This document shows, piece after piece, positions 2 through 24,052 of a stretch of 64,000 bases of DNA. Made by a program: the position numbers and the translations under genes. The notes beneath the pieces were generated by a model. The model did not search any database. It was not told the DNA's origin and worked only from the letters and a program-made list of their open reading frames with translations. Within the stretch, counting starts at the first letter, position 1, and each line of letters begins with the position of its first letter. Source of the DNA: a virus; the IMG/VR virus record IMGVR_UViG_3300027963_000039; one strand, written 5' to 3'.

Positions 2-2701
2 CCAAAAAGTTTAAAACTTTCAACAAATGATTCCAGATTTTTGAATATTAAAAATTTAAGGATCTTTGGTGAAACTTCCAAATCAATCGCTACAATTGAA
101 AACTCCATAATTTCAAGAAATAAAATAGAAGTTTTTATTTCAAATATTGAAAGACTATTTAACTCAGGTGAATTTGTACGTATTGTTGATGGCAACAATC
201 AAGATGTGATTGTTAATGGTTCTATAATGAGAGCCAAGATTGTAGGTCAAGTTAGTCAAATCAACGTAGCAAAAGATATTTTAGGTAACGCATTAAGAGG
301 ATCAAATTATGAAACAAATGATCCTGTGGTTGTTTATGGTGGTTTAAATCAAGAAATTCTTAATCCAGTTGGTGCTCAAGCAAAAGTTGGACAAACAACT
401 ACTGGTTCGATTCAACGTATCAATGTTACAAATGGTGGTTTTGGTTACAGAGTAACTCCAGACACGTTGTTGTCATTTTATGGATTAAATGCTTCATCTT
501 CAACACCTATTGCAACCGTATCGTCTGTTGATCCGACACCGTATAACAGAGCAAATGCAACTTTTATTCCTCAAGAAACAATTAGTATAAGACAAAATAT
601 ACAAATTGGAAATTCAGACTACATCTTTGCAAACGGTTATACGTTAGTGGTGAACACCAGTATGTATTCGGTCAATGCAAATACATTTCAATTGGGTGAA
701 GGTGTTTATCAGGGACCTAGTGCAAATCCAACTTTCTCGGGTATAGTTTCTAGATGGGATTCTGCCAATGGTATTATTAAATTGACCGGCGGTTCAGGTA
801 CACCATCAAGAAATGCAAACGTCATAAGCGTTGCAACAGGAAATGTGGGTAATGTCAGAGTATTTTCAACGGCAAATGCAAACACAACAATGGCTGAAGC
901 GTTTTCATTTCTCTCGTTGGAAACATATCCAATATCTTCCGTTGTTGTACAAAATGCTGGTGGCGGCATTAGAGTTTCTCCTACTATTATTGCAGACACA
1001 TACTATTCAGCAGACTCTTTTGATCCAACTAAAAAGGCCAATCTAAGATCGTTAGGTATTCTAGCACCAATCCGTATCGATTCTCCAGGTGAAGGTTATC
1101 GAATAAACGACACCATCAATATTATAAACGGATCAGGATATGGAGCATATGCAAAAGTAAGTAATGTAAGTGCAACAGGAGCAATCACAGAAACAACTTA
1201 TGTACAACAACAAGGTGCTGTTTATCCACTTGGTGGTTTAGGTTACGGTTTTGCTTTACCTGTTCTGTCTGTTACTTCTGCAAACAATCAGGCATCAAAT
1301 GCAGTATTGTCTGTCACGGCCGTTTTAGGTTCAGGTGCAACTTTTGATCCTGTTTTGGATAGGGTTGGTACAGTAACATCGATTGTTGTTACAGATGCTG
1401 GTGAAGATTATGTTTCTAATCCATCAGTATCATTAAAAGTTATTGATACACTTGTTGATGGTGCGGATATTTTAAATCTTCCACAAAAAGGTTCAACAGT
1501 TTATCAAGGTGCAGACCTAAACACAGCATCCTTCTATGCATATGTTGATTCAATTTCACAAATTACTTCAACGGTTGATGTGAATCCTGCATTGACAAAA
1601 TATAGTTTAAGAGTGTATGAATACAATTCAATACCTGTTGCTGGTTCAACTTTAAAATTCGTTGACTCGGATATTGAATTAAATCTTTTAGATGAAACTG
1701 TACCTTCCAATTTCTTCTATACAGGAAGTCCTGCTTTCACAAATGGTGTGAAACTATATGGTGATGGAAACGCAAGAGCTGTTGCTTCGTTCTTGAATGG
1801 TTTGGTAATTGGCCAAGGTCAGTATTTAAATTCACAAGGTCAACCAAGTTCATTCAACGTACTACAAAGTTCCATATACAACAACTACACGTATCAAATT
1901 ACGGTTGAAAAAGAAATTGCAAAGTACAGAGAAGCTTTATTAAATCTTTTACATCCAACAGGTATGAGAATCATTGGTCGATACAAATTATCGTCCAATT
2001 CAGATTACAATAATGTATTACATTCAGTTGGTTTGAATCGTGGTGATACATTATATCACTACACACAGACAAACAGTTCTAATGCTGTGATGTCTACAGA
2101 TTTCTCAAATACAAGTACAAACTTAGTAAAGTTTTATAATATTGGTGCTGGTACAAATATTGCAAACTTTATATTGGCAAACAGTTCTATTTTCTTGGCA
2201 CCAACAAATGGTCCAGACATAATTTCTAAAGCTCAATCTGTAGACTATGCCAATAATCAAGTGTATCTATCAGAAAGTATATTTTTAACATATGCAAATG
2301 TTGCTCACGCAGTAGGATCCAATGGATCAAGCACTATAAATATAACATCAGTTTATACAGATTCTTACAATATTGTTAACAATGGAGTTTATAGTAATAC
2401 TGCATACCCATTAAAAGATATTATATTTGCTGGTGATAAGATACTTGTAGCAAACAATACTGCCAAGACAGTACAGAGTATCGATTACACGACTGGAATT
2501 ATTACACTAACTTCCAGTTTAACGTCAAATGTAAACTCAAATGTTGCAGTAAGCAGAACGTTCTCAGCTGGAGGAAGTGCCGCAACCAGACAACAAGTTA
2601 GAATTTATGGTACTATTGGAACACAATATTATCCACAACTTGTAACTGAAAATGGTGATTCGTTAATAACAGAAGATGAAAATTTAATTCTTTTAGACTA
2701 G
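2..2701 (+). CDS. Baseplate wedge protein, gp7-like (5' truncated by window edge)
   Basis: Frame is open from position 2 (PKSLKLSTNDSRFLNIK). Repeated GxGY beta modules; LQSSIYNNYTYQI...LLHPTG motif typical of T4-like gp7; lies upstream of gp8. Confidence 0.7.
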   Translation, partial: PKSLKLSTNDSRFLNIKNLRIFGETSKSIATIENSIISRNKIEVFISNIERLFNSGEFVRIVDGNNQDVIVNGSIMRAKIVGQVSQINVAKDILGNALRGSNYETNDPVVVYGGLNQEILNPVGAQAKVGQTTTGSIQRINVTNGGFGYRVTPDTLLSFYGLNASSSTPIATVSSVDPTPYNRANATFIPQETISIRQNIQIGNSDYIFANGYTLVVNTSMYSVNANTFQLGEGVYQGPSANPTFSGIVSRWDSANGIIKLTGGSGTPSRNANVISVATGNVGNVRVFSTANANTTMAEAFSFLSLETYPISSVVVQNAGGGIRVSPTIIADTYYSADSFDPTKKANLRSLGILAPIRIDSPGEGYRINDTINIINGSGYGAYAKVSNVSATGAITETTYVQQQGAVYPLGGLGYGFALPVLSVTSANNQASNAVLSVTAVLGSGATFDPVLDRVGTVTSIVVTDAGEDYVSNPSVSLKVIDTLVDGADILNLPQKGSTVYQGADLNTASFYAYVDSISQITSTVDVNPALTKYSLRVYEYNSIPVAGSTLKFVDSDIELNLLDETVPSNFFYTGSPAFTNGVKLYGDGNARAVASFLNGLVIGQGQYLNSQGQPSSFNVLQSSIYNNYTYQITVEKEIAKYREALLNLLHPTGMRIIGRYKLSSNSDYNNVLHSVGLNRGDTLYHYTQTNSSNAVMSTDFSNTSTNLVKFYNIGAGTNIANFILANSSIFLAPTNGPDIISKAQSVDYANNQVYLSESIFLTYANVAHAVGSNGSSTINITSVYTDSYNIVNNGVYSNTAYPLKDIIFAGDKILVANNTAKTVQSIDYTTGIITLTSSLTSNVNSNVAVSRTFSAGGSAATRQQVRIYGTIGTQYYPQLVTENGDSLITEDENLILLD

Positions 2702-2709
2702 GGTAATAA

Positions 2710-3849
2710 ATGTCAACAGTAAAAATATCACAACTACCACTCATTACGGCATTAAATGCTAACACAGCCAATAGTTTGTTTATGGGTGTCGATATTCCAA
2801 CAGGCGTTACGGGTAAATTTACCGCACATACGTTGGCGGCAAACCTTTACTCTAACGAAATATTAAATGTTGGTGTCAATCAACAGAACTTACCTAATAC
2901 GATTGCACAATTTTCTTTGGGTGGCGAATCATATATCCAAACCAACCTCGTCAATACGAATGATGGTGGTACTGCTGACATAGTTGTAACCGCCAACGTA
3001 GGTTCTGGTGGTACGGATGCGGCCAACTTTATCGATATGGGTTATGCAAACAAGAACTATCAACCAGGTTCAGAATTTAATAATATTGGTAATGCGGTTC
3101 GCCCTAATGATGGTTACTTGTATGTACAAGGCACATCAGGTCAAAACTATGGTAACTTGACTATAGGTACCACTAGTGTCGGTGCTAACATAAACTTTAT
3201 TGCTGGCGGTGGTTCTGCACAAAACATCGTTGCAAAAATGACCTCAACTGGTCTAGTGTTGAACACACAATCATCAATTACATTCTCCGATGGTTCTTCA
3301 ATCAATACGGCACCGCCCACACTTACTTACACACAAGGCGTTAATACTTATCAAAATACTTACGCTCAGGCTGCGTTTGCAAAAGCTAATACCGCAGTTC
3401 AAAATACTGCTGTCATCCAACTACAATCGTTGACATTAACTGGTAATAATGATGTTACAGGTACTATAACTGGAAATAACTTTGTTGCAAATACTATTAC
3501 TGTTTCTGGTGTAGTTAATCCACAAAAAGGTTTCATTTACACACCAAACATTTACCCAAATTCACAGACAGCAATTACAATTGACTTTGCAAATAACTCG
3601 GTTGTTCGTGCTCAGACAGCTGCAGGTTTAGTTGTAACATTATCAAACTTTGTAATAGGTAAAGTTGTTGATGCATGGATTACAAATACTGCTGGCACAA
3701 ACCAAACATTTACTCATGGTGTTTCTGCTCTTAATTCAACAATTAATGCGACAACCTATAATATTCCAGGCACATCAACCATCTATGTAAAATACTGGAG
3801 TATTGATGGTACATTAACAAATACTTTCTGTTCGATTGTTCACGCTTAA
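2710..3849 (+). CDS. Virion fibre/structural protein with N-terminal KISQLP motif
   Basis: MSTVKISQLP start, T/N/G-rich beta composition, AQAAFAKANT coiled segment, baseplate context. Confidence 0.6.
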   Translation: MSTVKISQLPLITALNANTANSLFMGVDIPTGVTGKFTAHTLAANLYSNEILNVGVNQQNLPNTIAQFSLGGESYIQTNLVNTNDGGTADIVVTANVGSGGTDAANFIDMGYANKNYQPGSEFNNIGNAVRPNDGYLYVQGTSGQNYGNLTIGTTSVGANINFIAGGGSAQNIVAKMTSTGLVLNTQSSITFSDGSSINTAPPTLTYTQGVNTYQNTYAQAAFAKANTAVQNTAVIQLQSLTLTGNNDVTGTITGNNFVANTITVSGVVNPQKGFIYTPNIYPNSQTAITIDFANNSVVRAQTAAGLVVTLSNFVIGKVVDAWITNTAGTNQTFTHGVSALNSTINATTYNIPGTSTIYVKYWSIDGTLTNTFCSIVHA

Positions 3850-3859
3850 TAAATAAATC

Positions 3860-5227: not shown

Positions 5228-8200
5228 ATGGCTCTGAATTTTAACGTAGACCCGTATTATGACGATTTTGATCCGTCTAAAAATTTCCATCGCATACTTT
5301 TTAAACCAGGTGCTGCTGTACAAGCTCGGGAATTAACTCAATCCCAGACAATTTTACAGAATCAAATATCAAATTTTGCCGACAGCATTTTTTCTCAGAA
5401 CACACCTGTTACTGGCGGTAAAGTAACAACGAATTTAAATTGTCATTACTTAAAATTAAATCTACAATACAATAACGTCAACATTAGTGCAGCTTCTTTC
5501 TTGAATAAAATCATTCAAGATTCTACTGGTACAATTATTGCAAAAGTTATTGCTACATCCGAATCTACCGGTACTGTTACTGCTGCAGGTGATCCACCTA
5601 CTTTAATTCTTTCTTACTTATCCGGCATACATTTCTCCGACAATATGTTAATTGTACCAACTGACGGTACAAATATTGGCGCAACAACCATTGGTGCTAC
5701 AGGTGGTACAACTTGTTCTGGTCTTTCTTCTGTTGCTTCTATTTCTGATGGTGTTTTCTATGTTGTAAATGGTTATTCTCAATCATCGACTGCAAACCAA
5801 GACGGAAGCTTTACAAAATATTCAATCGGTAATTTTGTTGCTGTACAACCACAAACAATCATTCTTTCCAAATACGGAAATACACCTTCCTATCGTGTAG
5901 GACTGTCCATAACAGAGACAATTGTAGACTACGTTAATGACTCATCACTATTAGATCCGGCTGTTGGAGCGTCTAATTACCAGGCTCCTGGTGCTGATAG
6001 ATATGCAATCATTCTTTCATTAATTGCTTTGCCTTTATCTTTAGGTAGTGATGATGCGTTTATTGAATTGTTGAGAATGGAAAATGGTGATATATTAAAA
6101 CAAGTCGATAATACTGTTTATTCGGTAATCGATGATTATTTTGCTAAGCGTGATTATGAAAGTAACGGCGATTATATTGTTAATGATTTCAAATTAACTC
6201 CATCAGCCAATACTTCCGATGGTGCAAAATATAATTTAAGTGTTGGTAAAGGTGTTGCATATGTACATGGTTATCGTATAGAGAACCAATCACCATTAAC
6301 TATTGTTAGTGACAGAGCTCGTGCAACAAAAACAATTGATACAAACAACGTTTATTTGGACTACGGAAACTATTTCTATATTGATACGTCCAATGGTTCT
6401 TTTGATATCACCACGATGCCTGTTGTTGATTTGCATTGCGTAGAATCAATCAACATTTCCGCAAACAACAATGGTGGTTCAGCTAACGCAAACACATATT
6501 CATCAACTTTAGTTGGTACTGCTCGCATTAGAGACTTGCAATATGTGACGGATGGTGGCAGTTCAAATACAAAATCATATGTTTATCAAGCATATGTTTC
6601 AGACATTTCAACCAGAACAATTTCAGGCGTAGCCAAAGTTTCTGGTTCTTCTGTAACAACTTTGGCTATTGATGATGGTAGTCGTGCAAACTTTTCCACA
6701 TCAGCCAACGCATACTATGGAATGACAGTCACTATAACTGGTGGTACATCCTCAGGTGACATCCGCACCATTTCTTCATATAATGGAACAACAAAAGTAA
6801 TTACTGTTACATCTCCGTTCACTTTTGTTCCTGATGCAACCACTCAATTCAAATTAACTTTAACACCAAAGAGTGTCGAGTCTATTGTTGTTAAAGATGC
6901 TGCATATTCTTTCTCTGCAAACTCCAATATTAATACCATTTACGGTAAACAAAGTGCTGTAGTAACTGGTGACACCGTGTTAACAAATCCTGGATATCCA
7001 GAGATGGTTTTCACAATTGGTAATCCATATGTTGCGAATGTATCTAGTTCCAGTTACACATCAACAAAGATTTATCGTAACCAAGCGATCTCAAACACAG
7101 TACCATTAACCATATCCGCAACAGGAACATTTACTTTCATCGGTAATGGTGCATTAAGTTCTGATGCAAAGAAACAAAACTTTATTGTTGTCAGCAAAAC
7201 GACAGGCCAAATATTGGATTTCTCGACAACTGGTAATACAATTACTGTAACAAGTGGAACACAAGCAACGTTTTCGACCACGAAATGGAATGATACAGTT
7301 GATATTATTGCAAACATTAATATTCCATATGCAGATCATGCTACGGATGGTGGTCTGGTATTAAAATCTAAAAACTTAGTTACTGGTAATACGACAGCTG
7401 TTGGAACATTAACTGCTGTAACAGGCACATCAAATACAACAATTGATTTGACAAAAGGTCAAACGTATATTACTAACGCAACAACTAGAAACCCACAAAT
7501 TTCGTTGTATGTTTCAGATGTTAAGAAAATTAAAAAGATTATTGACACAGGTGCTCCAGGTACTGCGCCAACAGCAGCAATGCTAACTGCTGCTCAGTAT
7601 GATGTAACAAATCAATATACACTAAACAATGGCCAAAAAGATAGTTTTTATGACCATGCTTATTTGAAACCTTTAGTTGGTGCAGCAAAAGGCAATTTGT
7701 TGGTGGTCTATGATTTCTACACACATGGCGGTGGTGATGGTTACTTTAGTGTATTATCATATCAAGCTACTGGCGGCGGTTTCTCAACATCGCCAGAGAC
7801 ATATTCGGAAATTGGAAGTTACACAGCTTCATCAGGTAAAACATATCGTTTAGCTGATTGTTTAGATTTTAGACCAGTTAGAACAAACGCAACAACAGCA
7901 ACTACTTTCAACTATCAGAATTCTTCTGCTTCAAGAGGTATGTTGTTGCCACAAAACTTGACACAATTCCAAAGTTCTTATGCTTACTATCTTGGAAGAA
8001 AAGATATATTGGTATTGAGTAAAGACAAGAGTTTTGAAATCATCCAAGGTGTTCCATCTTTAACTCCTATATTCCCAATACAACCAGAAGGTTCATTGTT
8101 ATTAGCTAATCTAACACATGATCCATATACTGCTTATGTTCCTGGTGAAAATCCAGGAAGTATAGTTTCGAACCTATCGATGAATAAGGTTTCACACAAT

Positions 8201-10051: not shown

Positions 10052-10072
10052 TAGATTAATTGGAAAAATAAA

Positions 10073-12467: not shown

Positions 12468-14193
12468 TACAGTTTCAGTTCTAAGTTATGCCAACACATT
12501 TGGTGATTGGGTAGTTGCGACCAACGCTCTATCGAGAGAGCACAACGACCTGGTAGCAAACAATTGGACCAAATCTACAGGAACATTGTATCTAACAGAT
12601 CCCTCATTAGGCATGCAAGTTAGTGGTGCAGCTATTGTTGCTGGCGCTTTACAAGTTCAGGGTACAGGTTCATCCGCATACGTACAAAATAACATTCGTA
12701 TTGATGGAACTTTGGCCGCAACAAACTCTACAAATAGTATTTACTCCACAGGTGTTGTTACATCTTTAGGTAGAGTAAATGCTAATGCTTCCGGATTAGG
12801 TTTATTTGTTGCAAACAATTTTACTGTTGGCGGCACAGCAAACGCTTCAAATTTATTTGTAACATCAACCACCACAACCGGTAACTTAGTGGTTTCTGGT
12901 ACATCAAATGTTGAAAGTTTAGTTGCAAACACATTTCTTAGAACAAACACATTTGTTGCCAATACAATAACCGCAAATACAATCACCAATGCAGGATCGA
13001 TGAGTGCTAACGGATTATCTGTTGGTACGGGTGGTTTGAATGTGCAAGGTAGTTTCACTTTAAATGGAACGACAGTCTACAATACTCCATATTTTACCAT
13101 AAGTGCTGCGACACCAAATATAGATGCTTATTTTGGTGTCTACAGAACAATCACAGCAAATGCTAGTATTAAATGGGACAATGCAAATTCATATTTTGCT
13201 ATTGGTGATGTCACTTCTGGCGCAAATAATTATTTTTATAGAATACTTACTGCACAACAACTAACAGATTCTTTATCTGATAACAGTTCTTTAAATGTAG
13301 CAACATCTAAAGCCGCAAACACTTTACAAGTTGCTTTAGTTTCTGCAAACACATCGATGAAGTCTTATGTGGACAACATCAATACTATTGGTGCAGGTAT
13401 CAATACAGCACAAAATACCAATATTACAACCGCAAACAATGCGGCGTGGGCAGGATACGCTCGTGCTAATACATCATCAAATACTTTTGTTGGCACTTCT
13501 GGTAGCGCATCACCTAGTACCGGTGTTATTTCGTTCAACAGTACAAACGGTATTACAATTAGTGGAACAAGTAACGTTCTAACAATCAGTACCTCACAGA
13601 ATTTACAAACAAACGGTACTCCTACTTTTGCAACTGTAACGTTAAGTTCACCGTCAACTGCACCAACAGCAGCAACAAATACAAGTAACACTCAAATTGC
13701 TACGACTGCGTTTGTTCAGAATCAGTTAAACAACGGTAATACTTATACACTTACTTCCGCAGTAACAAATTCCGTTACTGTAGTAAATGATTCATCAACA
13801 AATGCCACAATGTATCCTGTTTGGGTCGTTGCAAATTCAGGTAACAATGCACTTAAAACATCGAGTTCCAATTTCTATTTCAATCCAAGTACAGGCTCAG
13901 TAAGTGCAACTATATTCAACGCACTCTCTGATGAAAATAGAAAAGAAAATATTTACCCAATCACCAATGCAACTGGTGTAATTAAACAAATTAATGGTTA
14001 TGGATTTAATTGGAAAGATAATGGTAAAAAATCTTACGGTCACATCGCTCAACGTTTAGAAGAAATTTTACCCGATTTAGTAGACACCAATGCAGAGGGT
14101 GTGAAATCGGTTAATTATAACGGTTTAATTGCCTTCTTGGTTGAAACTGTAAAAGAGATGGACAAACGTATCACAGAATTGGAAAGTAAATAA
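12460..14193 (+). CDS. Tail fibre protein with C-terminal intramolecular chaperone (peptidase S74-like) domain
   Basis: SDENRKENI..GFNWK..GHIAQRLEEILPDLV..SVNYNGLIAFLVETVKE; N-terminal NTFGDWVVATN. Confidence 0.85.
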   Translation: MANTVSVLSYANTFGDWVVATNALSREHNDLVANNWTKSTGTLYLTDPSLGMQVSGAAIVAGALQVQGTGSSAYVQNNIRIDGTLAATNSTNSIYSTGVVTSLGRVNANASGLGLFVANNFTVGGTANASNLFVTSTTTTGNLVVSGTSNVESLVANTFLRTNTFVANTITANTITNAGSMSANGLSVGTGGLNVQGSFTLNGTTVYNTPYFTISAATPNIDAYFGVYRTITANASIKWDNANSYFAIGDVTSGANNYFYRILTAQQLTDSLSDNSSLNVATSKAANTLQVALVSANTSMKSYVDNINTIGAGINTAQNTNITTANNAAWAGYARANTSSNTFVGTSGSASPSTGVISFNSTNGITISGTSNVLTISTSQNLQTNGTPTFATVTLSSPSTAPTAATNTSNTQIATTAFVQNQLNNGNTYTLTSAVTNSVTVVNDSSTNATMYPVWVVANSGNNALKTSSSNFYFNPSTGSVSATIFNALSDENRKENIYPITNATGVIKQINGYGFNWKDNGKKSYGHIAQRLEEILPDLVDTNAEGVKSVNYNGLIAFLVETVKEMDKRITELESK

Positions 14194-14194: not shown

Positions 14195-14530
14195 ATGGCA
14201 GCAGGATACCAAGACATTTATTTAGAACAGGGTGTTACATACACCAACCAAATCACGCTTGATGATTCTACAGGTGAGCCATATAATTTAACTGGATTTA
14301 CCGTCAAAAGTCAAGCCAAAAAATCTTATTACTCAACAAATCCAACCATCACGTTTAATGCAATAATTTACGATGCAAACAATGGCGTAATACAGTTGAG
14401 TGCAAATTCTGCTGTAACTGCAAATGTGGCTCCCGGTAAATTGGTATATGATATTATTATCATGGGATCCAATAATGTAACCCGTGTACTTGAAGGACAA
14501 ATATTTGTATCTCCAGCCGTAACTAAGTAG
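14195..14530 (+). CDS. Conserved small virion protein (EQGxTF/Y...YDI...RVLEG family)
   Basis: Motif pattern common in T4-like aquatic phage fibre regions. Confidence 0.65.
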   Translation: MAAGYQDIYLEQGVTYTNQITLDDSTGEPYNLTGFTVKSQAKKSYYSTNPTITFNAIIYDANNGVIQLSANSAVTANVAPGKLVYDIIIMGSNNVTRVLEGQIFVSPAVTK

Positions 14531-14538: not shown

Positions 14539-14898
14539 ATGCCAAATGTTAGAGTCAATCCCATACAAAGCATAAATGTAAGGATAAATCAACGAAATCA
14601 ACCCGTTGTTTCTACTACCTCCACATTTAATGGCCAAGTTGAAGTACAAGAAAAAGTTGACTTTGCTTTATCGCAAGCCAATAGTGCTTTAATTCTTGCC
14701 AACACAGCTTATTATCTCGCCAACACAGCCACACAAGACATCTCTTACATAAAAGGTGTCGATGCATGGCAGAATACACAGATTTCATATGTGAACGTTT
14801 TTGCTCAGTCGGCTTATAACCAAGCAAATGCATCATATAATTTTGCAAATACAATATATACTGATCTTTCCGTAATTGACGGAGGCTTTTTTTACTAA
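14539..14898 (+). CDS. Short fibre-associated protein ending IDGGFFY
   Basis: ORF in gene run; SAYNQAN coiled motif shared with neighbours. Confidence 0.6.
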   Translation: MPNVRVNPIQSINVRINQRNQPVVSTTSTFNGQVEVQEKVDFALSQANSALILANTAYYLANTATQDISYIKGVDAWQNTQISYVNVFAQSAYNQANASYNFANTIYTDLSVIDGGFFY

Positions 14899-15041: not shown

Positions 15042-15266
15042 ATGAAAAGAAATAGAATAAATCAACAAAGACTGCCCTTTTCAACTGCCGGTTCTCATAC
15101 CGGTAATCCCACCATCTCTAGTACTTTTTATGGTGCATATGGTTCTGCAAACAACCAAATACGTTCTGCATATGACCAAGCCAATACGGCTACAGGCATT
15201 GCAAATACAGCAAACACACTTGCAACCGATCTATCGATAACTCTAGACGGTGGTTTTTTTAACTGA
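15042..15266 (+). CDS. Short paralog of 14539 ORF ending LDGGFFN
   Basis: Shares RINQ, STFxG, SAYxQAN, TDLS and DGGFF with the previous ORF; no clear SD. Confidence 0.45.
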   Translation: MKRNRINQQRLPFSTAGSHTGNPTISSTFYGAYGSANNQIRSAYDQANTATGIANTANTLATDLSITLDGGFFN

Positions 15267-15281: not shown

Positions 15282-15289
15282 TATAAATA
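15282..15289 (+). promoter_or_regulatory. T4-type late promoter TATAAATA
   Basis: Exact consensus in an intergenic gap; same or near-same motif at 3848, 20020, 21855, 28743, 33550, 35310, 37633, 39290, 40518, 41950. Confidence 0.75.
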
Positions 15290-15401: not shown

Positions 15402-17273
15402 ATGGCCATTTCAAATACTAACATTCTGATTAAACGTTCAGGTGTCGGTGGAACAGGACGTCCAAGTTCGCTACTATCTGGTGAATTAGCGTATTCATAC
15501 GCATCAAATACAATCTTTATCGGTTCTCCAACTGGTAATGGTGTTGTTAATGTTGGCGGTCAATTCTACACTTCACAGATCGATTCTGCAACTACATCAA
15601 ATACCGCAAGCACCCTTGTAAAACGTGATGCTGACGGTAAATTTGCTGGTCGTTTGACTGGTATTGCAGACAAAGCCGATCAATTAACAAATTCACGTAA
15701 CTTCTCCGTTTCTGGTAGTGACATCACCGCAGCTAACGTTTCTTTTGATGGTACTGGTTCAGTTACATTAAATGCTTCTTTAAATGCTGTTCCTGGTCTA
15801 TCTGCTGGTGCATACGGTTCTACAACAGCCATTCCTGTTGTTACTGTTGGTGCAAACGGTCGTGTTCTTGCAATTTCAACATCAACTATTGCAACACAAT
15901 TTGATATTAATGATGGCACAAACAGCAATACGATTAACGGTGGTTCAACATTCTACCATCTTGGTACAAAAGGTATCACAACAACGGTATCAGCCAATAC
16001 TGTAACGATATCTACAGATAACACAATCGTTCGTTCTAATACAACATCCGTTGGTCCACAGACCATCGGTACAGACTTGAATATTTCTGGTAACTTAACT
16101 GTTACAGGTACAACAACATACGTTAATACAGCCGTTGTACAAACAAACGATTCATTAATTCAACTTGCTGCAAACAATACTGTAGGCGATGTAATTGATA
16201 TCGGTTTCGTTGGTACATACAACAACGGTGCAAACGTAGCAACCGGTCTTGTTCGTGATGCTGGTAACAAAGCGTACTACTTGTTCAAAGATGTTGAGGC
16301 TAGTTCTATTACATCTGCAAATACGATTGCAAATAACCTGTTCACACAGGCAAATACTGCAACTCTGTATGCTAACTTAAATGCTTTCTCAGGCACAATT
16401 GGTACTTTAACATTAACCAACGCATTAACTGTACCTAACGGTGGTACAGGTCAAACTTCGTTTAATACTGGCCAGATGATTGTTGGTTCAGGCACGAACG
16501 GTCTTGCACAAATTGCTAACGTATCGACCGCAATCAGTCAGAGTTTTGGTTCTGCATCAGTTGTTCCAGTATTCACAACAGACGCTTATGGTCGTGTTGC
16601 TTCTGTATCTAACACATCAATCGCAATTGCTGCTTCACAAGTTACTTCTGGCCAGTTAGCGATTGCTCAAGGCGGTACAAACTCTGGTTCATATGCACAG
16701 AACGGTTTACTATACTATAACGGTACTTCTTTTGCAACATCTGCTAACCAAACTGCTTACACCACACAAGGTGGTGCAAGTTATGTTCCAGTAATTTCTA
16801 CCAACACTCTTGGTCAAGTTACTGCAATTTCTAACACACAGATTGCAATTGACGTAAGCAACATCACTTCTGGTACATTGGGTTACAGCAGAGGCGGTAC
16901 AGGTTCTACATCATACACAACAGGTGCATTGCTTGTTGCTGGCGTTACTGGTCTAGAGTCTGTTGCTAATACAACATACGTATTGACTGGCGCACTAGCA
17001 TCTAACAATACAATCACTTCATTGACTGTTGATGCATATGGCCGTGTAACTGCTGCAACTGGTGCTGCAATTTCTGGTCTAACCGTTGCTCAAGGCGGTA
17101 CAGGACTAGCAACTGTAACAACAAACGGTATCACATATGGTAACGGTACTGCTGCGATGGGTGTAACTGCTGCTGCAGGATCTTCCGATCAGACATGGTC
17201 TAATCAGATTCTTACAGTAACAGCTGCTGGTGTTCCAGTATGGTCATCAGCAATGGACGGTGGAACATTCTAA
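15402..17273 (+). CDS. Tail fibre-like protein
   Basis: ILIKRSG..PSSLLSGELAYS N-terminus; repeated VDAYGRV and xxGGTG motifs; ends MDGGTF; AAGGA SD; late promoter upstream. Confidence 0.8.
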   Translation: MAISNTNILIKRSGVGGTGRPSSLLSGELAYSYASNTIFIGSPTGNGVVNVGGQFYTSQIDSATTSNTASTLVKRDADGKFAGRLTGIADKADQLTNSRNFSVSGSDITAANVSFDGTGSVTLNASLNAVPGLSAGAYGSTTAIPVVTVGANGRVLAISTSTIATQFDINDGTNSNTINGGSTFYHLGTKGITTTVSANTVTISTDNTIVRSNTTSVGPQTIGTDLNISGNLTVTGTTTYVNTAVVQTNDSLIQLAANNTVGDVIDIGFVGTYNNGANVATGLVRDAGNKAYYLFKDVEASSITSANTIANNLFTQANTATLYANLNAFSGTIGTLTLTNALTVPNGGTGQTSFNTGQMIVGSGTNGLAQIANVSTAISQSFGSASVVPVFTTDAYGRVASVSNTSIAIAASQVTSGQLAIAQGGTNSGSYAQNGLLYYNGTSFATSANQTAYTTQGGASYVPVISTNTLGQVTAISNTQIAIDVSNITSGTLGYSRGGTGSTSYTTGALLVAGVTGLESVANTTYVLTGALASNNTITSLTVDAYGRVTAATGAAISGLTVAQGGTGLATVTTNGITYGNGTAAMGVTAAAGSSDQTWSNQILTVTAAGVPVWSSAMDGGTF

Positions 17274-17308: not shown

Positions 17309-18082
17309 ATGAGCAATGATAGCTATATTAATCATTATGTTGAAATTTTAACCAGTACGATGACGGATGCTGTAATTAGAAATGTTTCTTTACAGGCAAA
17401 CGCAAGAATTAGTGATGAAGTTATTGCTGGATTGAATAAAAAAGTTGAAGAATCATTTGCTCAGATTGGAAAATATGAGGAAAAGTCAAGCGGTGAAATT
17501 AATAATCTAAAATCATCGCTTGACAACCACCTCAATACGATTACAAGATTAAATAATGAAATTCAAGAACAGAAACGTAATCATGTTAATGAAATTAAAG
17601 ATTATAAACTTAAATCTACTAATCAAATTGATAAGTTAAATATATTAATTGAGGAACAAGCGAATACCATTTCTTCATTAGAAGAAACAATTTCTAATTT
17701 TGATATATCTAAAGAAGAAATTGAAAATTTAAATTCTTATAAAGAAGAATTAAATAAATTAAAAGAAGAAAACGGTAAATTCAATGAATCATATGAATCA
17801 AAAATTACTGAAGCAAATAGTGGATATGATTCTAAAGTTGCAGAAATGCAAAGTGAATATGAATCTAAAGTTGCAGAAGTTAATAATCAATATGAATCCA
17901 AAATTAAAGAATTGACAGAAGCAAATAGTGGATATGAATCTAAAGTTGCAGAACTTAACCGTGAATATACCAATTTGAAAACGCAAGTACAAACTGTATT
18001 GAATAGAACTCGAACGGATTATGAATCTAGGATTTCACAATTGAATGAAAAAATCAAATCGTTAGAATCTTCCTCTCTTTGA
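17309..18082 (+). CDS. Coiled-coil protein with 11-residue repeats
   Basis: E/K/N-rich heptads; YESKV/IAE repeats. Confidence 0.7.
   Translation: MSNDSYINHYVEILTSTMTDAVIRNVSLQANARISDEVIAGLNKKVEESFAQIGKYEEKSSGEINNLKSSLDNHLNTITRLNNEIQEQKRNHVNEIKDYKLKSTNQIDKLNILIEEQANTISSLEETISNFDISKEEIENLNSYKEELNKLKEENGKFNESYESKITEANSGYDSKVAEMQSEYESKVAEVNNQYESKIKELTEANSGYESKVAELNREYTNLKTQVQTVLNRTRTDYESRISQLNEKIKSLESSSL
17791..17968 (+). repeat. Coding tandem repeat, ~33 nt period (YESKVAE)
   Basis: tatgaatctaaagttgcagaa and gaagcaaatagtggatatga recur. Confidence 0.75.
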
Positions 18083-18150
18083 TAAAATTGACGAATAGTG
18101 TTCCGAATAAAGATGGTGTAAAAACTTAACTTAAATCTTTAGAAAAAAAA

Positions 18151-19032
18151 ATGTCAACACCTATATCAAACACCAGAATACAACTTAAAAAATCCGGCGT
18201 ATCGGGTAATACACCAACATCATTAAACTTTGGAGAGTTGGCGTTAAACTACGCCGATGGAAAGTTATATTATAAAGATGATACTGGTACCATCCGTTAC
18301 ATTAAAAATTCAAATTCTTTTGCTACAGTAAACGCAAATGCCTCTTTGGTATTAGCTCAGTCAAATAGTGATACATTGACTTTAACTGCGGCAAATGGTA
18401 TTGGTATCACAGCCAACACCATAACAAAAACGATTACGATTGATGATCGTGTTACACAAGACTTAGTTAATCATGTAAATGCATATGCGGCTTCTGCTTA
18501 CAATAAAGCAAATACTGCGGCTTTACAAATTACTCCTGTTGGAGAAACAGACAATAATGCTAACAATGTTTTCTATGTTGTTCTTAATGACATCAATAGT
18601 GGTCCTGCAAACACATTATTTGCAACAGCTAATAATGCTTCAAACAACACTTTAACATTTGTACCTTCTGCTGGAAAGATGGGCGTGAAGTCTATTGGTT
18701 TGGCTTCAAATACAATCATTTCTTCAAATAGTGTATTTGTTGCAAATTCTAATTCTAGAATAATTGATTCTTTTTCTACAACAGAATACAAAGGTGCTTT
18801 CTATCAAGTGCAAATGTCTAGTCCAGATTATTTTCACTCATTGAATCTTACCGTGATACATGATGGACTTTTTCCAACCATAACAACTTTTGGTGAAGTT
18901 TATACAGGTAGTTTAGGATCATTTTCCGCAGATATATTTGGATCAAATCTAGATGTAATTTTTACTCCTAGAGGAGATTTACCTACAGCGAATCTTGCTA
19001 CAATTGTATTCATCAAAAATGCGATTAGGTAA
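18151..19032 (+). CDS. Fibre-associated structural protein, paralog A
   Basis: IQLKKSG..LNFGELALNYADGKLYYKD N-terminus; C-terminal IDSFS..FYQVQ..VIHDG..FGEVYTG domain. Confidence 0.7.
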   Translation: MSTPISNTRIQLKKSGVSGNTPTSLNFGELALNYADGKLYYKDDTGTIRYIKNSNSFATVNANASLVLAQSNSDTLTLTAANGIGITANTITKTITIDDRVTQDLVNHVNAYAASAYNKANTAALQITPVGETDNNANNVFYVVLNDINSGPANTLFATANNASNNTLTFVPSAGKMGVKSIGLASNTIISSNSVFVANSNSRIIDSFSTTEYKGAFYQVQMSSPDYFHSLNLTVIHDGLFPTITTFGEVYTGSLGSFSADIFGSNLDVIFTPRGDLPTANLATIVFIKNAIR

Positions 19033-19037: not shown

Positions 19038-20015
19038 ATGTCTACCGCAAACACCACAATACAACTTAAAAAATCCGGCGCTTCAGGAAACACTCCATCG
19101 AATTTGAATTTTGGAGAGTTGGCGTTAAACTACGCCGATGGAAAGTTATATTATAAAGATGATTCTGGAAATACCAGTTTCATTAAAAATTCAAATTCTT
19201 TTTCTACTATTGTTGCCAACTCTTATTCTTTAGTTGCCAACACGAATTCTGATGTACTGAATTTAGAATCTGCAAATGGTTCGTATGGTATTAACATACT
19301 CGCCAATACGCAATCAAAAACCATTAGAATTGATGATTCGGATACACAAACGTTAATTGGTGATGTAAATACGTTGGTTAGTTCTGCTTACAATAAAGCA
19401 AACAACTTAGCTATACACATCGATTCGATTGGAGAAGTTTCTAATACTTATTATATTAATTTTGCGGATCATAATAACAATTCGTCAAATATCTTATATA
19501 CTACCGCAAATAACACTCTGACTTTTAAACCTTCTGAAGGAAAATTAGGTGTAAGGTCTATTGACTTGACATCAAATACAAATATAGTTGCTAAAACTGT
19601 AGTTGTACCAAACATTAATCCAATTGTAGTAGATTCATTCTCAATTAATGAATTTAGAAGTGCTTTTTATCAAATACAAATATCAAGACCAACCTCTTTT
19701 CATTATCATTCATTAAATTTTAACGTTGTACATGATGGATATTTTCCAATCACATCAACTTTCGGTGAAGTGTATACGGGTAGTTTAGGTTCATTCTATG
19801 CAAGTATATTTGGATCAACATTAGAAGTAACTTTTTATCCTAGTGTGGGTGCTGCAACTGTTGTTTTCACTAGATATGCAGTTGATACAAGTCCTATACA
19901 AGGAACTCCAGAAGATTCTATGGGTTCGGTTGGTGATCCTCCTACATCAAGATACAATTCGGGATCTGTTACAGAATTGCCAACATTGATTTTGGATTAC
20001 GGCACAGTAAATTAA
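19038..20015 (+). CDS. Fibre-associated structural protein, paralog B
   Basis: Collinear paralog of 18151 with an extra C-terminal GSV-repeat tail ending LDYGTVN. Confidence 0.7.
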   Translation: MSTANTTIQLKKSGASGNTPSNLNFGELALNYADGKLYYKDDSGNTSFIKNSNSFSTIVANSYSLVANTNSDVLNLESANGSYGINILANTQSKTIRIDDSDTQTLIGDVNTLVSSAYNKANNLAIHIDSIGEVSNTYYINFADHNNNSSNILYTTANNTLTFKPSEGKLGVRSIDLTSNTNIVAKTVVVPNINPIVVDSFSINEFRSAFYQIQISRPTSFHYHSLNFNVVHDGYFPITSTFGEVYTGSLGSFYASIFGSTLEVTFYPSVGAATVVFTRYAVDTSPIQGTPEDSMGSVGDPPTSRYNSGSVTELPTLILDYGTVN

Positions 20016-20049
20016 CAAGAATAAATAAATCAAACTTTAGGGATAAACC

Positions 20050-21843
20050 ATGGCTACACAACTACAATTAAGACGAGGTAATACGGTAGAAACTTTAGCG
20101 TTTACCGGCGCTATTGCTGAAGTTACCGTAGATACGGCACAAAACACGTTAACTGTACATAATGGTGTAACACCTGGCGGCATCTATTTGGTCAACAAAG
20201 GTCAATTTGAAGCAAACGTTACAAATTTGCAAACTTTTGCACAAGCAGCTTACAACGCAGCGAATACTGCTGGTGGTGATACTGCTTCCGCAAATACTAT
20301 TATAATTCAAGGTGTTGATCTTACTCAAAACACCAATATTACCGCTGTAAATACGTATGCTGGTTCTGCTTATGCTGCAGCTAATTTGGCATTAGGTATT
20401 GATGCAACACAGAATACCAATATTACTGCTGTAAACACTTATGCCGGTTCTGCTTATGCTGCAGCTAATTTGGCATTAGGTATTGATGCAACACAGAATA
20501 CCAATATTACTGCTGTTAATACATATGCTGGAAGTGCTTATGCTGCAGCTAATTTGGCATTAGGTATTGATGCAACTCAAAACACCAACATCACAGCAGT
20601 TAATACATATGCGGCATCAGCTTACGGTGTAGCCAATACTGCTACATCCAATATCACGGTAATTCAAGGTGTAGATAATACACAGAATACTAATATTACC
20701 GCTGTAAATACGTATGCTGGTTCTGCTTATGCTGCAGCTAATTTGGCATTAGGTATTGATGCAACTCAAAACACCAACATCACAGCAGTTAATACATATG
20801 CGGGTTCTGCATATAACAAAGCAAACAATGCACTTCCTTTAACTGGTGGTTCAATATCAGGCAGTATAGCAGTATCACAGGACTTAACTGTTTCTGGTAA
20901 CTTAGTTATTCTTGGAAATACAACCACAATCAACACATCATCATTTATTGTTACAGACTCCTTGATTCTTTTAGGTGAAGGTAATTACACATCTGATGTA
21001 TTGGATATTGGTTTTTCTGGTCACTACAACGATGGCACTAATGCTCACGCTGGTTTGATCCGTGATGCTGGAACAAAAGAATGGTATTTGTTTAAAGGTT
21101 ATACACCAGAAGTTGATGCAAATAATAATGTTGATCTCAACCACGCATCATTCAGAAAAGCAAACTTACAATCAGACTATGTTAAATCAAATCTAATTGC
21201 AACAACAGCTGTAGTAAATGGATTAGATATTTTCAATTACGTTACTTCTGCTTACGCAGCTGGTAATACCAATGCAACTAATATTACTGCTGTAAACACA
21301 TATGCTGCTGGTGCTTACGGTGTAGCTAATACTGCTACATCCAATATTACGGTAATTCAAGGTGTAGATAATACTCAAAACACCAATATAACAACAGCGA
21401 ATAATGCCGCATGGGCTGCTTACGCTGCTGGTAATACTAATGCAACAAACATCACAGCGGTCAATACGTATGCTGGAAGTGCTTATGGTGTTGCCAATAC
21501 TGCTACAAACACATTAGGTTACACATATGTAACTGCTGGTGGTTATGGTAGTGCAACTGCTGTACCTGCAATCACATTGGCTGCAAACGGTAGAGTTGTT
21601 GCTGTAACAAGCACAAATATACAATCCGGTACCACTGGCCAAGTTGGTTTGGTACAATTAACTGATTCTGTTACTTCTACTAGCACAACAACTGCTGGCA
21701 CACCAAACTCTGTTAAAATTGCATATGACAGAGCTGAAGCGGCTTTCACAGCTGCAAATTCTGCATCTGCCAATGCTTCATCAAGTTCTGGTGCAAGCTT
21801 GGCACAAGTGATGTTCTGGAGCGGTTTAGTGTCCGGTTCTTAA
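20050..21843 (+). CDS. Tail fibre-like protein with Mtd-N-like N-terminal domain and 28-aa repeats
   Basis: MATQLQLRRG..FTGAIAEVTVDT..VHNGVTPGG; GLVQLTDS..TPNSVKIAYD phage fibre repeat. Confidence 0.8.
   Translation: MATQLQLRRGNTVETLAFTGAIAEVTVDTAQNTLTVHNGVTPGGIYLVNKGQFEANVTNLQTFAQAAYNAANTAGGDTASANTIIIQGVDLTQNTNITAVNTYAGSAYAAANLALGIDATQNTNITAVNTYAGSAYAAANLALGIDATQNTNITAVNTYAGSAYAAANLALGIDATQNTNITAVNTYAASAYGVANTATSNITVIQGVDNTQNTNITAVNTYAGSAYAAANLALGIDATQNTNITAVNTYAGSAYNKANNALPLTGGSISGSIAVSQDLTVSGNLVILGNTTTINTSSFIVTDSLILLGEGNYTSDVLDIGFSGHYNDGTNAHAGLIRDAGTKEWYLFKGYTPEVDANNNVDLNHASFRKANLQSDYVKSNLIATTAVVNGLDIFNYVTSAYAAGNTNATNITAVNTYAAGAYGVANTATSNITVIQGVDNTQNTNITTANNAAWAAYAAGNTNATNITAVNTYAGSAYGVANTATNTLGYTYVTAGGYGSATAVPAITLAANGRVVAVTSTNIQSGTTGQVGLVQLTDSVTSTSTTTAGTPNSVKIAYDRAEAAFTAANSASANASSSSGASLAQVMFWSGLVSGS
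20311..20830 (+). repeat. Coding tandem repeat, 84 nt / 28 aa (IDATQNTNITAVNTYAGSAYAAANLALG)
   Basis: gcttatgctgcagctaatttggcattaggtattgatgcaac present four times; variants recur near 21250-21500. Confidence 0.85.
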
Positions 21844-21898
21844 TATAAAAAATATATAAATAATACTAGACGAGTTCAAATTAACAAGGAGAGCGAAG

Positions 21899-22102
21899 AT
21901 GTCTATCAAAATTCAAGGAACGGATGTTATTGACGATAGTAAAAATGTCGTCAATATTATCAACGTAACTGCTTCTACAAATGTGGAAGCAGGTTCTTAT
22001 GTCACAGCAGCATACTTCAAAGGTGACGGAAGTCAACTAACGAACGCTGGTGCTTCGATAGACAAAGCCTTCTTCTTAAGCAATCTTTTATCTGGCGGAT
22101 AA
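21899..22102 (+). CDS. Short fibre-like peptide (IKIQGTDVIDDS..FKGDGSQLTN)
   Basis: AAGGAG SD, TATAAATA at 21855, FxGDGSxLT fibre motif. Confidence 0.7.
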   Translation: MSIKIQGTDVIDDSKNVVNIINVTASTNVEAGSYVTAAYFKGDGSQLTNAGASIDKAFFLSNLLSGG

Positions 22103-22145
22103 TATCTCACAAAACTATTTTAATCAATACACTAGGAGCAATTAA

Positions 22146-22484
22146 ATGGCCTCAGGTTTAATTCAAAAAACTGCTGTAACCAGTACCACACTTACACCAA
22201 TTTATTCTGGTGTACCGTCAGGTAAAACTGCAACAGTTAATATTTTAATTTGTAACACATCAGCAGCCGCAGCATCAATTTCTATTGGTTTAACAAATGC
22301 TTCAGCTAATACTTTAGGTACATCAGACTACTTGGAATATAGAACAATTTTAGCACCAAACGAATCTCTAGAAAGAGGTGGTCTTGTTCTACAATCCGGA
22401 GCATACGTTTATGTTTCTGCGGATAGTAATCCATCGGGAGGTACAATTGCTCTTGGGTGTATTATTACAGGTTTTGAAGTTTAA
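22146..22484 (+). CDS. 112-aa beta-rich virion protein, copy 1
   Basis: AGGAG SD; VPSGKTATVNILICN..LERGGLVLQ..ITGFEV. Confidence 0.75.
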   Translation: MASGLIQKTAVTSTTLTPIYSGVPSGKTATVNILICNTSAAAASISIGLTNASANTLGTSDYLEYRTILAPNESLERGGLVLQSGAYVYVSADSNPSGGTIALGCIITGFEV

Positions 22485-22534
22485 TCTTTCATTATAAATA
22501 TATAAAATATAATCAATACATTAGGAGCAATTAA

Positions 22535-22873
22535 ATGGCAACGGGTATTATTCAACAAACAAACGTAACAAGCACGTCACTTACATCTATCTATAGTGGT
22601 GTACCTTCAGGTAAAACCGCTACAATTAACATTTTAATTTGTAACGCTGCTAGCAATGCTGCAACAATTACTTTAGGTTTAACAACAGGTGCAACAGGTT
22701 CTTTATCTGGAAGCCAGTATATCGAATATAAATCAATTTTAGCTCCATATGAAGTTATGGAAAGAGGTGGTCTTGTTCTACAAGCTGGCGCTTATGTTTA
22801 TTTACAAGCCGAAAGCAATCCTATTGGAACAGGTATCAATTTAGCAACAACAATAACAGGATATGAGGTATAA
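22535..22873 (+). CDS. 112-aa beta-rich virion protein, copy 2
   Basis: Same length and motifs as copy 1; near-identical leader. Confidence 0.75.
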   Translation: MATGIIQQTNVTSTSLTSIYSGVPSGKTATINILICNAASNAATITLGLTTGATGSLSGSQYIEYKSILAPYEVMERGGLVLQAGAYVYLQAESNPIGTGINLATTITGYEV

Positions 22874-22876
22874 AAA

Positions 22877-24052
22877 ATGTCCAGATATTTAAAAGAAGTA
22901 TCGGCTACGGCCTATAGATTTAAGAAATATTTCATCGTACCAGGAACCTATTCCGTTTTTATTCCAGCTTCAGTAAAGCAAGTAAAAACAATTGCTTTTG
23001 GTGGCGGCGGAAACTCTTGTACAACCACAATTACGAATTGCCTAAGCCAACTTCAGCAATGTTGTTGCTGTTGCTATGTCAGAGGTCACTTTTCTGGTGC
23101 CGGCGGCGGTTTTACAGAAAAAACCTGGTTCGGTGTGGGTGGTCAATATGCTTGTATAGTTGTTGGTAGTTCGGAAGGAACTTCTTCTATTTGTTTCTGT
23201 GGCTTTGGATCAATCTCCGCAACTGGTGGTACAGGTTCAGGAACATCAACTAGAACAACTACTGGTGGATCAGGTTCCGGTGGTGAGGTTAATAGATGTG
23301 GAAGTCCTGGTTATTGCCGTTGTACTAGCGGATTCTGTAGGTATGATGCAGTTTATTATAATTGCGCCGCCAGTAATCAAACAGAACACAACAAAATGAT
23401 GTGTTCCCTTCTTTATCAAGAATTAAGGGGTGTACATTTATCCGGAGGTACTCCAGGAAATTCATTATGTAATAGAGCCGCACTAAGTGATGACACCACC
23501 AACGTTTACAGCACTTGTTGTGGATGTGTATCATACGGTGTCGCCGGCAATGGCGGTGATAGACCAAACAATTATGCTTACCCTGCTAGCTTTGCATGTA
23601 ACGGTGTTACCCAGCATACAGTACAACGTTGTACATACACAACAGTTCCAGGATATTGCTGGGGATTCCCAGCTTGGTATTGTCAGAGTGCGTTTGCTTT
23701 AGGTATACAAAACTGTATTGATCCGTTCTATACCTTTGACTGGGATCCAATAGCGAACTGCTGTTGCACATGTTTAAGAAGTACCTGTACAAGTCCAGGA
23801 ACATTTTCCACAACAGGCAGCGGTTCTTGTTTCCTTAATAACTTTGGTGGTTACAACTATTGTTGTGCATACTGTTTCGTTGAAAGAAATAATGAGTCTT
23901 GTACACATACTTTCCTAGGTGCTCCAGGTTTTGGTTGTGCTCCAGGAACAACAGGCGGCGGTGGTGCTGGTATCTGGAACGGTGATGAAACTAGATGTTT
24001 ATCCGATTATTCTAGATCAGGTGGTGTTGGTCTTGTAGTTGTTCACTATTAA
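22877..24052 (+). CDS. Cys-rich, glycine-rich-domain protein (putative fibre tip)
   Basis: FxxPGTY..IAFGGGG..GAGGG..GGVGLVVVHY scaffold; 37 Cys by hand count, including CCCCC. Confidence 0.7.
   Translation: MSRYLKEVSATAYRFKKYFIVPGTYSVFIPASVKQVKTIAFGGGGNSCTTTITNCLSQLQQCCCCCYVRGHFSGAGGGFTEKTWFGVGGQYACIVVGSSEGTSSICFCGFGSISATGGTGSGTSTRTTTGGSGSGGEVNRCGSPGYCRCTSGFCRYDAVYYNCAASNQTEHNKMMCSLLYQELRGVHLSGGTPGNSLCNRAALSDDTTNVYSTCCGCVSYGVAGNGGDRPNNYAYPASFACNGVTQHTVQRCTYTTVPGYCWGFPAWYCQSAFALGIQNCIDPFYTFDWDPIANCCCTCLRSTCTSPGTFSTTGSGSCFLNNFGGYNYCCAYCFVERNNESCTHTFLGAPGFGCAPGTTGGGGAGIWNGDETRCLSDYSRSGGVGLVVVHY

Follow-up and report, generated by a model that had tools for sequence, protein, structure and literature searches.

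Paired C-terminal tags and N-terminal heads as putative fibre connectors in a T4-like freshwater myophage

The window, a 64,000-nucleotide stretch of DNA (IMG/VR record IMGVR_UViG_3300027963_000039), comes from a T4-like freshwater myophage and represents its fibre region. The fibre genes are best read as encoding a kit of probably trimeric segments that are linked in series through four types of non-covalent connector (A, B, C and D); a probability of about 0.72 was assigned to this reading. Modular joints of this kind would allow distal parts to be exchanged, extended or shortened one gene at a time. Gene junctions were tabulated across ~440 related loci (3,321 junctions), and C-terminal tags were paired with matching N-terminal heads far above chance, the tag patterns and the jelly-roll subfamily patterns having been written after the same data were viewed.

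The first-pass annotation had proposed that each tag docks into a cognate head, giving daisy-chained or branched fibres. Every motif that it listed was found at its place. Docking and daisy chains were supported by class-specific adjacency, 14 unrelated cultured phages, matched A and B counts and one complex model that outscored its controls. Two junctions match the known physical joints of T4 gp36-gp37 and the BPP-1 fibre-Mtd. No description of the tags or of such a code was found in the literature covered, mainly outside subscription journals.

Layout of the fibre region

Features are listed in Table 1, and genes are named by their first position. The likely path runs from the LtfC-like collar to adaptor 14539 (or 15042), then to trunk 15402, and from there either to 18151, where the chain would end, or to 19038; beyond 19038 it would continue through 20050 and a jelly-roll linker to the tip 22877. 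Only 15402 among the three A-head genes lies directly after a DGG tail.

Table 1. Fibre-related features of the window (positions of the whole stretch)
Feature	Position	Strand	Remark
C-terminal D tag (TEDG type) on the gp7-like baseplate wedge protein, ORF 41-2701 (truncated 5')	2639..2698	+	
379-aa fibre protein with D head (begins KISQLP); gene lies between gp7 and gp8	2710..3849	+	
LtfC-like collar/anchor, likely start of A chain	14195..14530	+	PHROG 3304 (L-shaped tail fibre assembly), E 1.5e-16
Adaptor with beta-strands at its N-terminus, then a helix, and an A tag (14875-14895) at its C-terminus	14539..14898	+	
5'-shortened adaptor copy, A tag 15243-15263	15042..15266	+	alignable with 14539 over its C-terminal half
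T4-type late promoter consensus TATAAATA, also at 21855 and 22493	15282..15289	+	consensus match only
Trunk fibre, A head at start, A tag at end (17253-17270)	15402..17273	+	
Coiled-coil protein, here without DGG tag	17309..18082	+	
Paralogue of 19038 without a tag: A head, then beta-rich S domain at the C-terminus	18151..19032	+	
Putative A-to-B converter, in which an A head and S domain are followed by a repeated B tag (19917-20012)	19038..20015	+	
Fibre: QLRRG/Mtd_N head (B), repeats, Phage_fiber_2 repeat, hydrophobic C tail (21790-21840)	20050..21843	+	
67-aa stalk lacking an A or B head, with the second hydrophobic C tail (22049-22099)	21899..22102	+	
112-aa jelly-roll linker (putative), copy 1	22146..22484	+	
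112-aa jelly-roll linker (putative), copy 2, own late promoter consensus	22535..22873	+	nearest relatives single-copy
Cys/Gly-rich putative tip protein, N-terminus goes with C6-type jelly-roll subfamily	22877..24052	+	

The proposed anchor scored 19.7 bits against Pfam LtfC, under the cut-off of 27, and an LtfC gene followed by a tag-only gene was found in nearly all of the 80 modules used for copy-number analysis. In T5 and DT57C, LtfA N-terminal strands add to LtfC sheets (PMC10713586), and the LtfC-like gene here is likewise followed by a protein of N-terminal strands and a helix; the window differs in belonging to a contractile-tailed T4-like phage and in having the LtfA-like part as a 119-aa adaptor with a terminal tag. 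The shortened copy 15042 has no clear ribosome-binding site upstream; its counterpart in locus L009 is identical at 56/73 positions between identical flanks, and all codon changes in its DGG are silent. For the coiled-coil protein 17309, no family was assigned from PHROG, Pfam or the Atlas; a DGG tag is present in 55/73 relatives, and a possible relic (KDG) lies in the -1 frame at 18103-18129. A role as a gp57A-like chaperone may be considered for 17309. The stalk 21899 is conserved in L009, L086, L125 and L126. The tip protein had no Pfam or PHROG match, and no homologues of gp34, gp35 or gp36 were found among the proteins of the fibre cluster (Pfam, PHROG).

The proposed A and B joints

Endings of the form DGGxF occur in 14539, 15042 and 15402 alone among the 69 plus-strand ORFs of the window, where they read DGGFF and DGGTF. 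As a background, related loci were taken from the neck gene on, and none of their 536 distinct genes had a DxGx[FY]-type ending. The A head, I-x-[IL]-K-[RK]-SG...GELA, opens 15402, 18151 and 19038. In the junction table, A tags preceded an A head 233 times and a B head 12 times (nearly all of these in one lineage), and a further 134 A-type endings preceded a non-head gene. B tags preceded a B head 57 times and an A head 0 times. There are also genes of 65-78 aa that consist of a head and a tag alone. A scan of genome contigs with the A head as query gave one locus.

The A head resembles T4-like gp37 N-termini (~50% identity over 40 aa; tblastn E 5e-4 to 9e-3) and matches PHROG 1699 at positions 6-47 (E 9e-4), the profile score that links it to gp37 being partly circular, with T4-like gp37 in the searched set. 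T4 gp36, which binds the gp37 N-terminal region (PMC3004832), lies directly upstream of the gp37 head and ends in DFGYY, again a DxGx[FY] tail; no structure or paper was found that names this tail as a docking element. The window departs from T4 in using the A joint three times per gene row, in its unrelated fibre bodies and in its LtfC-like anchor start. No PDB sequence match was obtained for the A head, and fold searches with its monomer model (pLDDT 83.9) told little: the top Z was 3.5, Mtd 1YU0 had Z 2.7 and the HylP rows were weak. Likeness to a crAss001 head fibre, seen in weak fold rows, was dropped after a check against PMC10172136.

Complex modelling, which the first-pass annotation had suggested as a check, was run for the cognate DGG tail and A head, using the last 45 aa of 15402 and residues 6-65 of 18151. 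The ESMFold2 3+3 model placed the tail on the head with a score of 0.77 (best control 0.00), at a mark reached by 58/80 solved (true) and 2/110 mismatched (false) pairs. Runs had >=86% of contacts in common with partner pLDDT >=62, and the modelled interface brings residues 37-45 of the tag chain against residues 1-10, 15-18, 21 and 26 of the head. In the proposed A joint, each of three chains would contribute its last 5-9 residues (DxGx[FY]) as an extra beta-strand, running along the first strand of a small T4 gp37-type N-terminal cap. The trunk 15402 could self-polymerise, since it has both an A head and an A tag.

For the B joint, a Mtd_N cap related to the A cap would take a tail of 1-3 DxGx[LIV] motifs, the spacing of which is usually 13 or 15 residues; the DYG-type tag of 19038 has three motifs 13 aa apart. 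The N-terminus of 20050 scored 28.1 bits against Pfam Mtd_N (cut-off 26.3) and aligned with BPP-1 Mtd (1YU0) over residues 1-48 only (E 2e-9). Mtd sits at the fibre ends of BPP-1 (PMC2408619), and Bbp9, upstream of Mtd, ends in DLGGIA, a DxGx[LIV] tag shared by the gene upstream of 20050; the BPP-1 Mtd structures hold Mtd without the fibre. Unlike Mtd, 20050 appears to be a stalk ending in a further connector. It has no Pfam lectin-fold match, and a Mtd-type C-terminal lectin-fold variable domain is absent, the C-terminus being a fibre repeat and a hydrophobic tail. In S-SSM7 and S-CAM1, some B heads have no terminal tag directly upstream. Tail-head pairing recurs in podo- and myoviruses infecting distant hosts, and among the unrelated cultured phages tag position 5 was aromatic in 5 A lineages and aliphatic in 9 B lineages (Fisher p 0.0005, on a hand-picked phage set). 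Directly following GEL, most A heads carry Ala and most B heads Thr or Ile; in the model this position touches the last tag residue. The A and B heads are homologous (E 3e-4), and because of this homology and of the 12 A-to-B junctions the specificity between the two joints may be loose.

Copy numbers were compared across the 80 modules, in loci that are related to one another. A tags equalled A heads in 73/80 modules (rho 0.92), a match that omits the coiled-coil tag by a decision made after seeing the data; with that tag included, 55 modules have one spare tag. B tags equalled B heads in 78/80 modules (rho 0.96). Cross-pair counts were uncorrelated (rho 0.08 and 0.12). Counting co-occurrence across relatives had been suggested as a check by the first-pass annotation. 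The correlations are partly built in, because a head-plus-tag gene raises both counts at once. One lineage kept a 3:3 and 2:2 balance despite a non-collinear gene order. No obvious sub-code was seen among the tags preceding the three A head subtypes.

The proposed C and D joints

A hydrophobic tail led by GAS closes both 20050 and 21899, and two 112-aa paralogues with 63% identity come after them; hydrophobic tails preceded a 112-aa jelly-roll at 55 junctions. The 2:2 count put forward by the first-pass annotation did not hold, because the nearest relatives (L009, L086, L125 and L126) have both tails and one 112-aa gene; in 20 complete modules, by a crude definition of the tail, tail and jelly-roll counts were uncorrelated. 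Jelly-roll subfamily predicted the upstream tail in 80/81 cases and the downstream head in 77/81, at least six subfamilies were matched in this way, and 21 loci carry several of them in one genome. C6-type linkers preceded an M[SG]RY head in 7/7 cases, and Cys-rich genes also follow this subfamily in S-CAM1 and P-SSM2. The 112-aa protein is linked as well to the N-terminus of the gene that follows, so it resembles a three-way linker more than a plain socket; in the proposed C joint the ~110-aa jelly-roll would be bound both by a hydrophobic tail and by the N-terminal peptide that the following gene encodes. An AF2 model of copy 1 (pLDDT 92.8) had eight strands. No function was assigned from the fold, because only generic folds matched (best KHP40 cement trimer, Z 9.3, rmsd 3.0, 105 aligned); the C head had no PDB sequence match.

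For the D joint, the gp7 tail may hold a separate baseplate fibre. The gp7-like ORF, whose full-length orthologue matches baseplate wedge PHROG 17744 (E 8e-40), ends in a TEDG-type tail, and 2710 begins with KISQLP; such a tail preceded a KISQL head at 68 junctions. The TEDG tag was present in 60/60 gp7 proteins accompanied by a D gene (53 recognised by pattern and 7 by eye) and absent in 3/3 marine isolates without one. The D head had no Pfam, PHROG or PDB sequence match and was found in none of the cultured phages. The 1:1 D pair comes from a single orthologous lineage.

Alternative readings and known systems

The first-pass annotation had read the duplicated tags and sockets as branch points, and the 3:3 count fits two anchors with two alternative or parallel tips equally well. 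True branching, in which the extra adaptor 15042 and the 18151/19038 duplication would give two fibres or a fork and the jelly-rolls would cap two stalks, is considered unlikely. The window and L009 do exceed L007 (trunk 83% identical) by one tag-only gene and one A head, the silent changes in 15042 preserve its DGG, and precedents exist in the branched fibres of DT57C (PMC10713586) and phiKp24 (PMC9700779) and in the BPP-1 fibre, which bears two Mtd trimers (PMC2408619). However, a fork would need an internal or second A tag, which no protein of the window has; 15042 is without the adaptor's first strands as well as a clear ribosome-binding site, and the second jelly-roll, missing in the closest relatives, is followed by a single matching tip gene.

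We doubt to much the same degree that the joints are real without being orthogonal, with A and B caps accepting either DxG tail and order coming from gene dosage, assembly timing or other surfaces. Head homology, the A-to-B junctions and the A subtypes without a tag sub-code would suit such a reading, but it sits poorly with the absence of B tags before A heads against 57 before B heads, with an exception lineage that still counts 3:3 and 2:2 while A and B counts vary independently, and with the modelled contact between the tag end and the residue after GEL that differs between A and B. Far less probable is the reading in which tails cap or trimerise their own fibres, and tail and next head are inherited as one recombining DNA block without binding. 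Tail and head are usually DNA neighbours, the D pair is one lineage and many A-type endings precede a non-head gene, as that reading would have it; yet the counts persist where a coiled-coil gene separates tag from head or the order changes, pairing recurs across podo- and myoviruses of distant hosts, the complex model places the tail on another protein, and gp36-gp37 binding is established (PMC3004832).

The connector reading may extend further: tailed phages may share a few mutually selective peptide-to-cap connectors (A, B, at least six C subtypes, D and possibly a fifth) as a genome-readable wiring code, with internal-B-tag proteins (S-CAM1 SXBG_00232, S-SSM7 gp110 and BPP-1 Bbp9) as branch points. 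This extension is put forward tentatively, the odds being somewhat against it. If true, the code would give fibre topology from sequence, and internal B tags would account for the presence of two Mtd trimers on each BPP-1 fibre. Fibres of several parts and docking by peptides are in principle already known. What is added is a naming of the likely joint-forming residues for T4 gp36-gp37 and BPP-1 fibre-Mtd, joints long known and structurally unsolved, so that both become testable by five-residue deletions in laboratory phages. Tag reading also offers an order of parts in the aquatic T4-like host-recognition region, to which these fibres presumably contribute and where most genes are annotated as hypothetical (PMC7029224). 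If selective, the pairs would be small trimer-to-trimer connectors useful for protein design.

Separately encoded, mutually docked fibres are also found in the T4gp10-like systems of phiKp24, G7C and CBA120 (PMC9700779) and in the gp44-gp45 joint of phiKMV-like Ar-KM (bioRxiv 10.64898/2026.05.18.726046). The S domain of 18151 and 19038, compared by sequence only, gave no Pfam or PHROG match to a T4gp10-like docking domain. In the T4gp10-like and Ar-KM systems the distal fibre uses an N-terminal part to dock into a proximal domain, whereas the polarity in the window, as modelled for A, would be opposite, the C-terminal peptide of the proximal protein docking on the distal cap.

Pairing of tags and heads across genomes

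About 440 loci (relatives and cultured phages) were fetched, head profiles were built and the ends of upstream genes were classed, yielding 3,321 distinct junctions. The pairing of each tag type with its own head type, as proposed in the first-pass annotation, was borne out by class-specific adjacency. A-type tails (DxGx[FY]) lay upstream of A heads at 233 junctions and of B heads at 12, B-type tails (DxGx[LIV]) upstream of B heads at 57 and of A heads at 0, TEDG tails upstream of D heads at 68, and hydrophobic tails upstream of C genes at 55. Very small p-values from these junctions overstate the case, because the loci are kin and also served to tune the patterns; unrelated cultured phages, where the pairing was the same, are the better evidence. 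Tag position 5 was aromatic upstream of A heads (T4-like phiD1, P-HM1, Limnohabitans DC31, Achromobacter Motura, Vibrio 1.293.O) and aliphatic upstream of B heads (BPP-1, AH02, HTVC008M, CRP-3, S-TIP37, Ep4, three Vibrio phages), a split with P = 0.0005 in this hand-picked set. B tails were mostly doubled, 13 or 15 residues apart (49/60), and A tails single (238/245). Within one lineage, all 60 D heads (60/60) were accompanied by the tag, and three marine isolates lacked head and tag alike. A B-head subfamily near neck/tail genes followed another kind of tail, one bearing two DL motifs, at 15 junctions (loci L127, L139, L140, L180, L187, L191, L196).

The tag/head feature of the window is real. 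All motifs were found at the positions first claimed; the DGGxF ending was confined to 3 of the 69 plus-strand ORFs, and endings of this type occurred in 0/536 distinct genes of related loci, counted from the neck genes on. The phage is T4-like and contractile-tailed, and the window is its structural operon, with a gp7-like wedge, gp8, a two-part VrlC-like gene, and neck, sheath and scaffold genes. Its close relatives are uncultured IMG/VR contigs, probably of freshwater origin. The tags and heads concern one gene lying between gp7 and gp8, plus the variable stretch from VrlC to the neck genes, termed a host recognition cluster (PMC7029224).

Copy numbers were compared in 80 modules anchored on LtfC. 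Tags equalled heads in 73/80 modules for A and 78/80 for B, with no correlation between A and B counts. The A match excludes the tag of the coiled-coil gene (17309; genes are named by ORF start), an exclusion chosen after 55/73 such genes in relatives proved to end in a DGG tag; several others had an acidic tail and terminal Phe. Genes bearing head and tag together inflate the count correlation, and the informative cases are two lineages with joint gain of tag source and head: the window with locus L009, which is nearly identical to it across most genes, and the L239 group, where 3:3 and 2:2 held despite scrambled gene order, and from which nearly all A-tail-before-B-head junctions came. The 2:2 count claimed for C failed, as L009, L086, L125 and L126 carry both tails and one jelly-roll.

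Heads, anchor and the modelled A joint

Sequence searches placed the A head (KRS/KKS...GELA) as homologous to the T4-like gp37 N-terminus, the region bound by T4 gp36 (PMC3004832), and gp36 itself has the A-type ending DFGYY. The B head (QLRRG) belongs to Pfam Mtd_N, with a match to residues 1-48 of BPP-1 Mtd; bbp9, the fibre gene upstream of Mtd, likewise has a B-type ending, DLGGIA. The two heads are distantly related (E 3e-4, probability 40%). No PDB sequence resembled the A head, and the related Mtd_N cap has a solved structure without partner. The D head (KISQLP) had no known family in Pfam, PHROG or PDB sequence searches. Gene 14195 is LtfC-like; the DT57C LtfC ring grips fibre N-terminal strands, with a coiled coil next along the fibre (PMC10713586), a layout shared by 14539.

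The 15402 tail and 18151 head were modelled with ESMFold2 as three copies of each, because their homologues directly adjoin in DC31. The score was 0.77 versus 0.00 for the best control; that mark was reached by 58/80 solved and 2/110 mismatched pairs, counts that are only rough for such a 3+3 job. Runs had 86% or more of their contacts in common, with a partner pLDDT of 62 or higher. In the best-resolved contacts, the four C-terminal residues of the tail met head residues 6-10, and the terminal Phe also touched residues 15-17 and 26, a pattern from which the A joint would be strand addition. The model supports A tail-to-head binding but is no demonstration of it or of its selectivity.

Proposed assembly, branching and jelly-roll linker

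Tag-to-head docking is likely (probability about 0.7). Every segment would form a trimer whose three distal tail peptides clamp the next segment's cap, in the order LtfC, 14539, 15402, 18151 or 19038, 20050, jelly-roll linker, 22877; 2710 would hang from gp7 on its own, and swapping one gene would alter fibre length or tip. Gene 15402 has both A head and A tail, and the scheme does not account for why it would not self-polymerise. Multi-protein and branched fibres are known from T4 (PMC3004832), BPP-1 (PMC2408619), DT57C (PMC10713586), phiKp24 (PMC9700779) and Ar-KM (bioRxiv 10.64898/2026.05.18.726046); no description of C-terminal tags and class-specific pairing was found in the literature searched, most subscription journals lying outside its scope.

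A strict orthogonal code with branching is less likely than docking, and doubtful. The fork first proposed for the window is not required by the data: two anchors with two alternative tips fit equally well, because internal or additional A tags are absent from all window proteins and 15042 is a shortened adaptor copy lacking a clear ribosome-binding site, although its DGG is kept in L009 through silent changes. For the coiled-coil protein, possible roles are chaperone, decoy and second anchor. Better branching candidates lie outside the window, in S-CAM1, S-SSM7 and BPP-1 Bbp9; BPP-1 reportedly has two Mtd trimers per fibre (PMC2408619). Their internal B-tag repeats are often paired, and these long proteins are candidate multi-dock scaffolds.

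The 112-aa C proteins have a predicted eight-stranded jelly-roll fold, with generic matches only plus many unnamed viral clusters. Within each of six subfamilies the tail type was constant (80/81 cases overall), as was the downstream N-terminus (77/81), which suggests a three-way linker; two or three subfamilies adjoined in 21 loci. A possible fifth joint, of reversed polarity, would pair the S domain (C-terminal, beta-rich, in 18151 and 19038) with an FxV[KR]NG or IKIxG..VID peptide.

Features of the window and of compared loci
Feature	Location	Observation
VrlC-like gene	5228-12235	Two ORFs (1607 + 720 aa); also split in L009, L007, L014, L015; single ORF of ~2100-2200 aa in L008, L018, L039
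Peptidase S74 fibre	12460-14193	C-terminal chaperone domain; free of all four tag and head types; length in relatives between ~380 and ~1400 aa
Coiled-coil gene	17309-18129	Stops without DGG tag; KDG remnant just downstream in -1 frame, identical in L009
S domains	18751-19029; 19614-19886	Often one to five genes upstream of FxV[KR]NG- or IKIxG..VID-starting proteins without A/B head
Possible opposite-polarity joint region	21899-21990	Also L125, L017, L360, L366, L166
Cys-rich protein	22877-24052	Very Cys-rich, also Gly-rich; no family match; same jelly-roll subfamily precedes Cys-rich genes in S-CAM1 and P-SSM2
Non-structural block	24607-28680	Within fibre region; Cys-rich genes of S-CAM1 and P-SSM2 also precede a Nol-like carbamoyltransferase and neighbours whose N-termini are similar
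S-CAM1; S-SSM7	L446:1375-7767; L205:15366-19955	Long proteins, many internal B motifs, upstream of Mtd_N gene
BPP-1 bbp9	L203:4599-6125	Two internal B-like motifs and a terminal one
Freshwater T4-like contig	L012:7749-9960	Two genes like Ccr34 gp074 and gp075, judged by ends
Caulobacter phiCbK-like Ccr34 gp074, gp075	L004:690-3341	Second gene ends in DGG tag here and in L012
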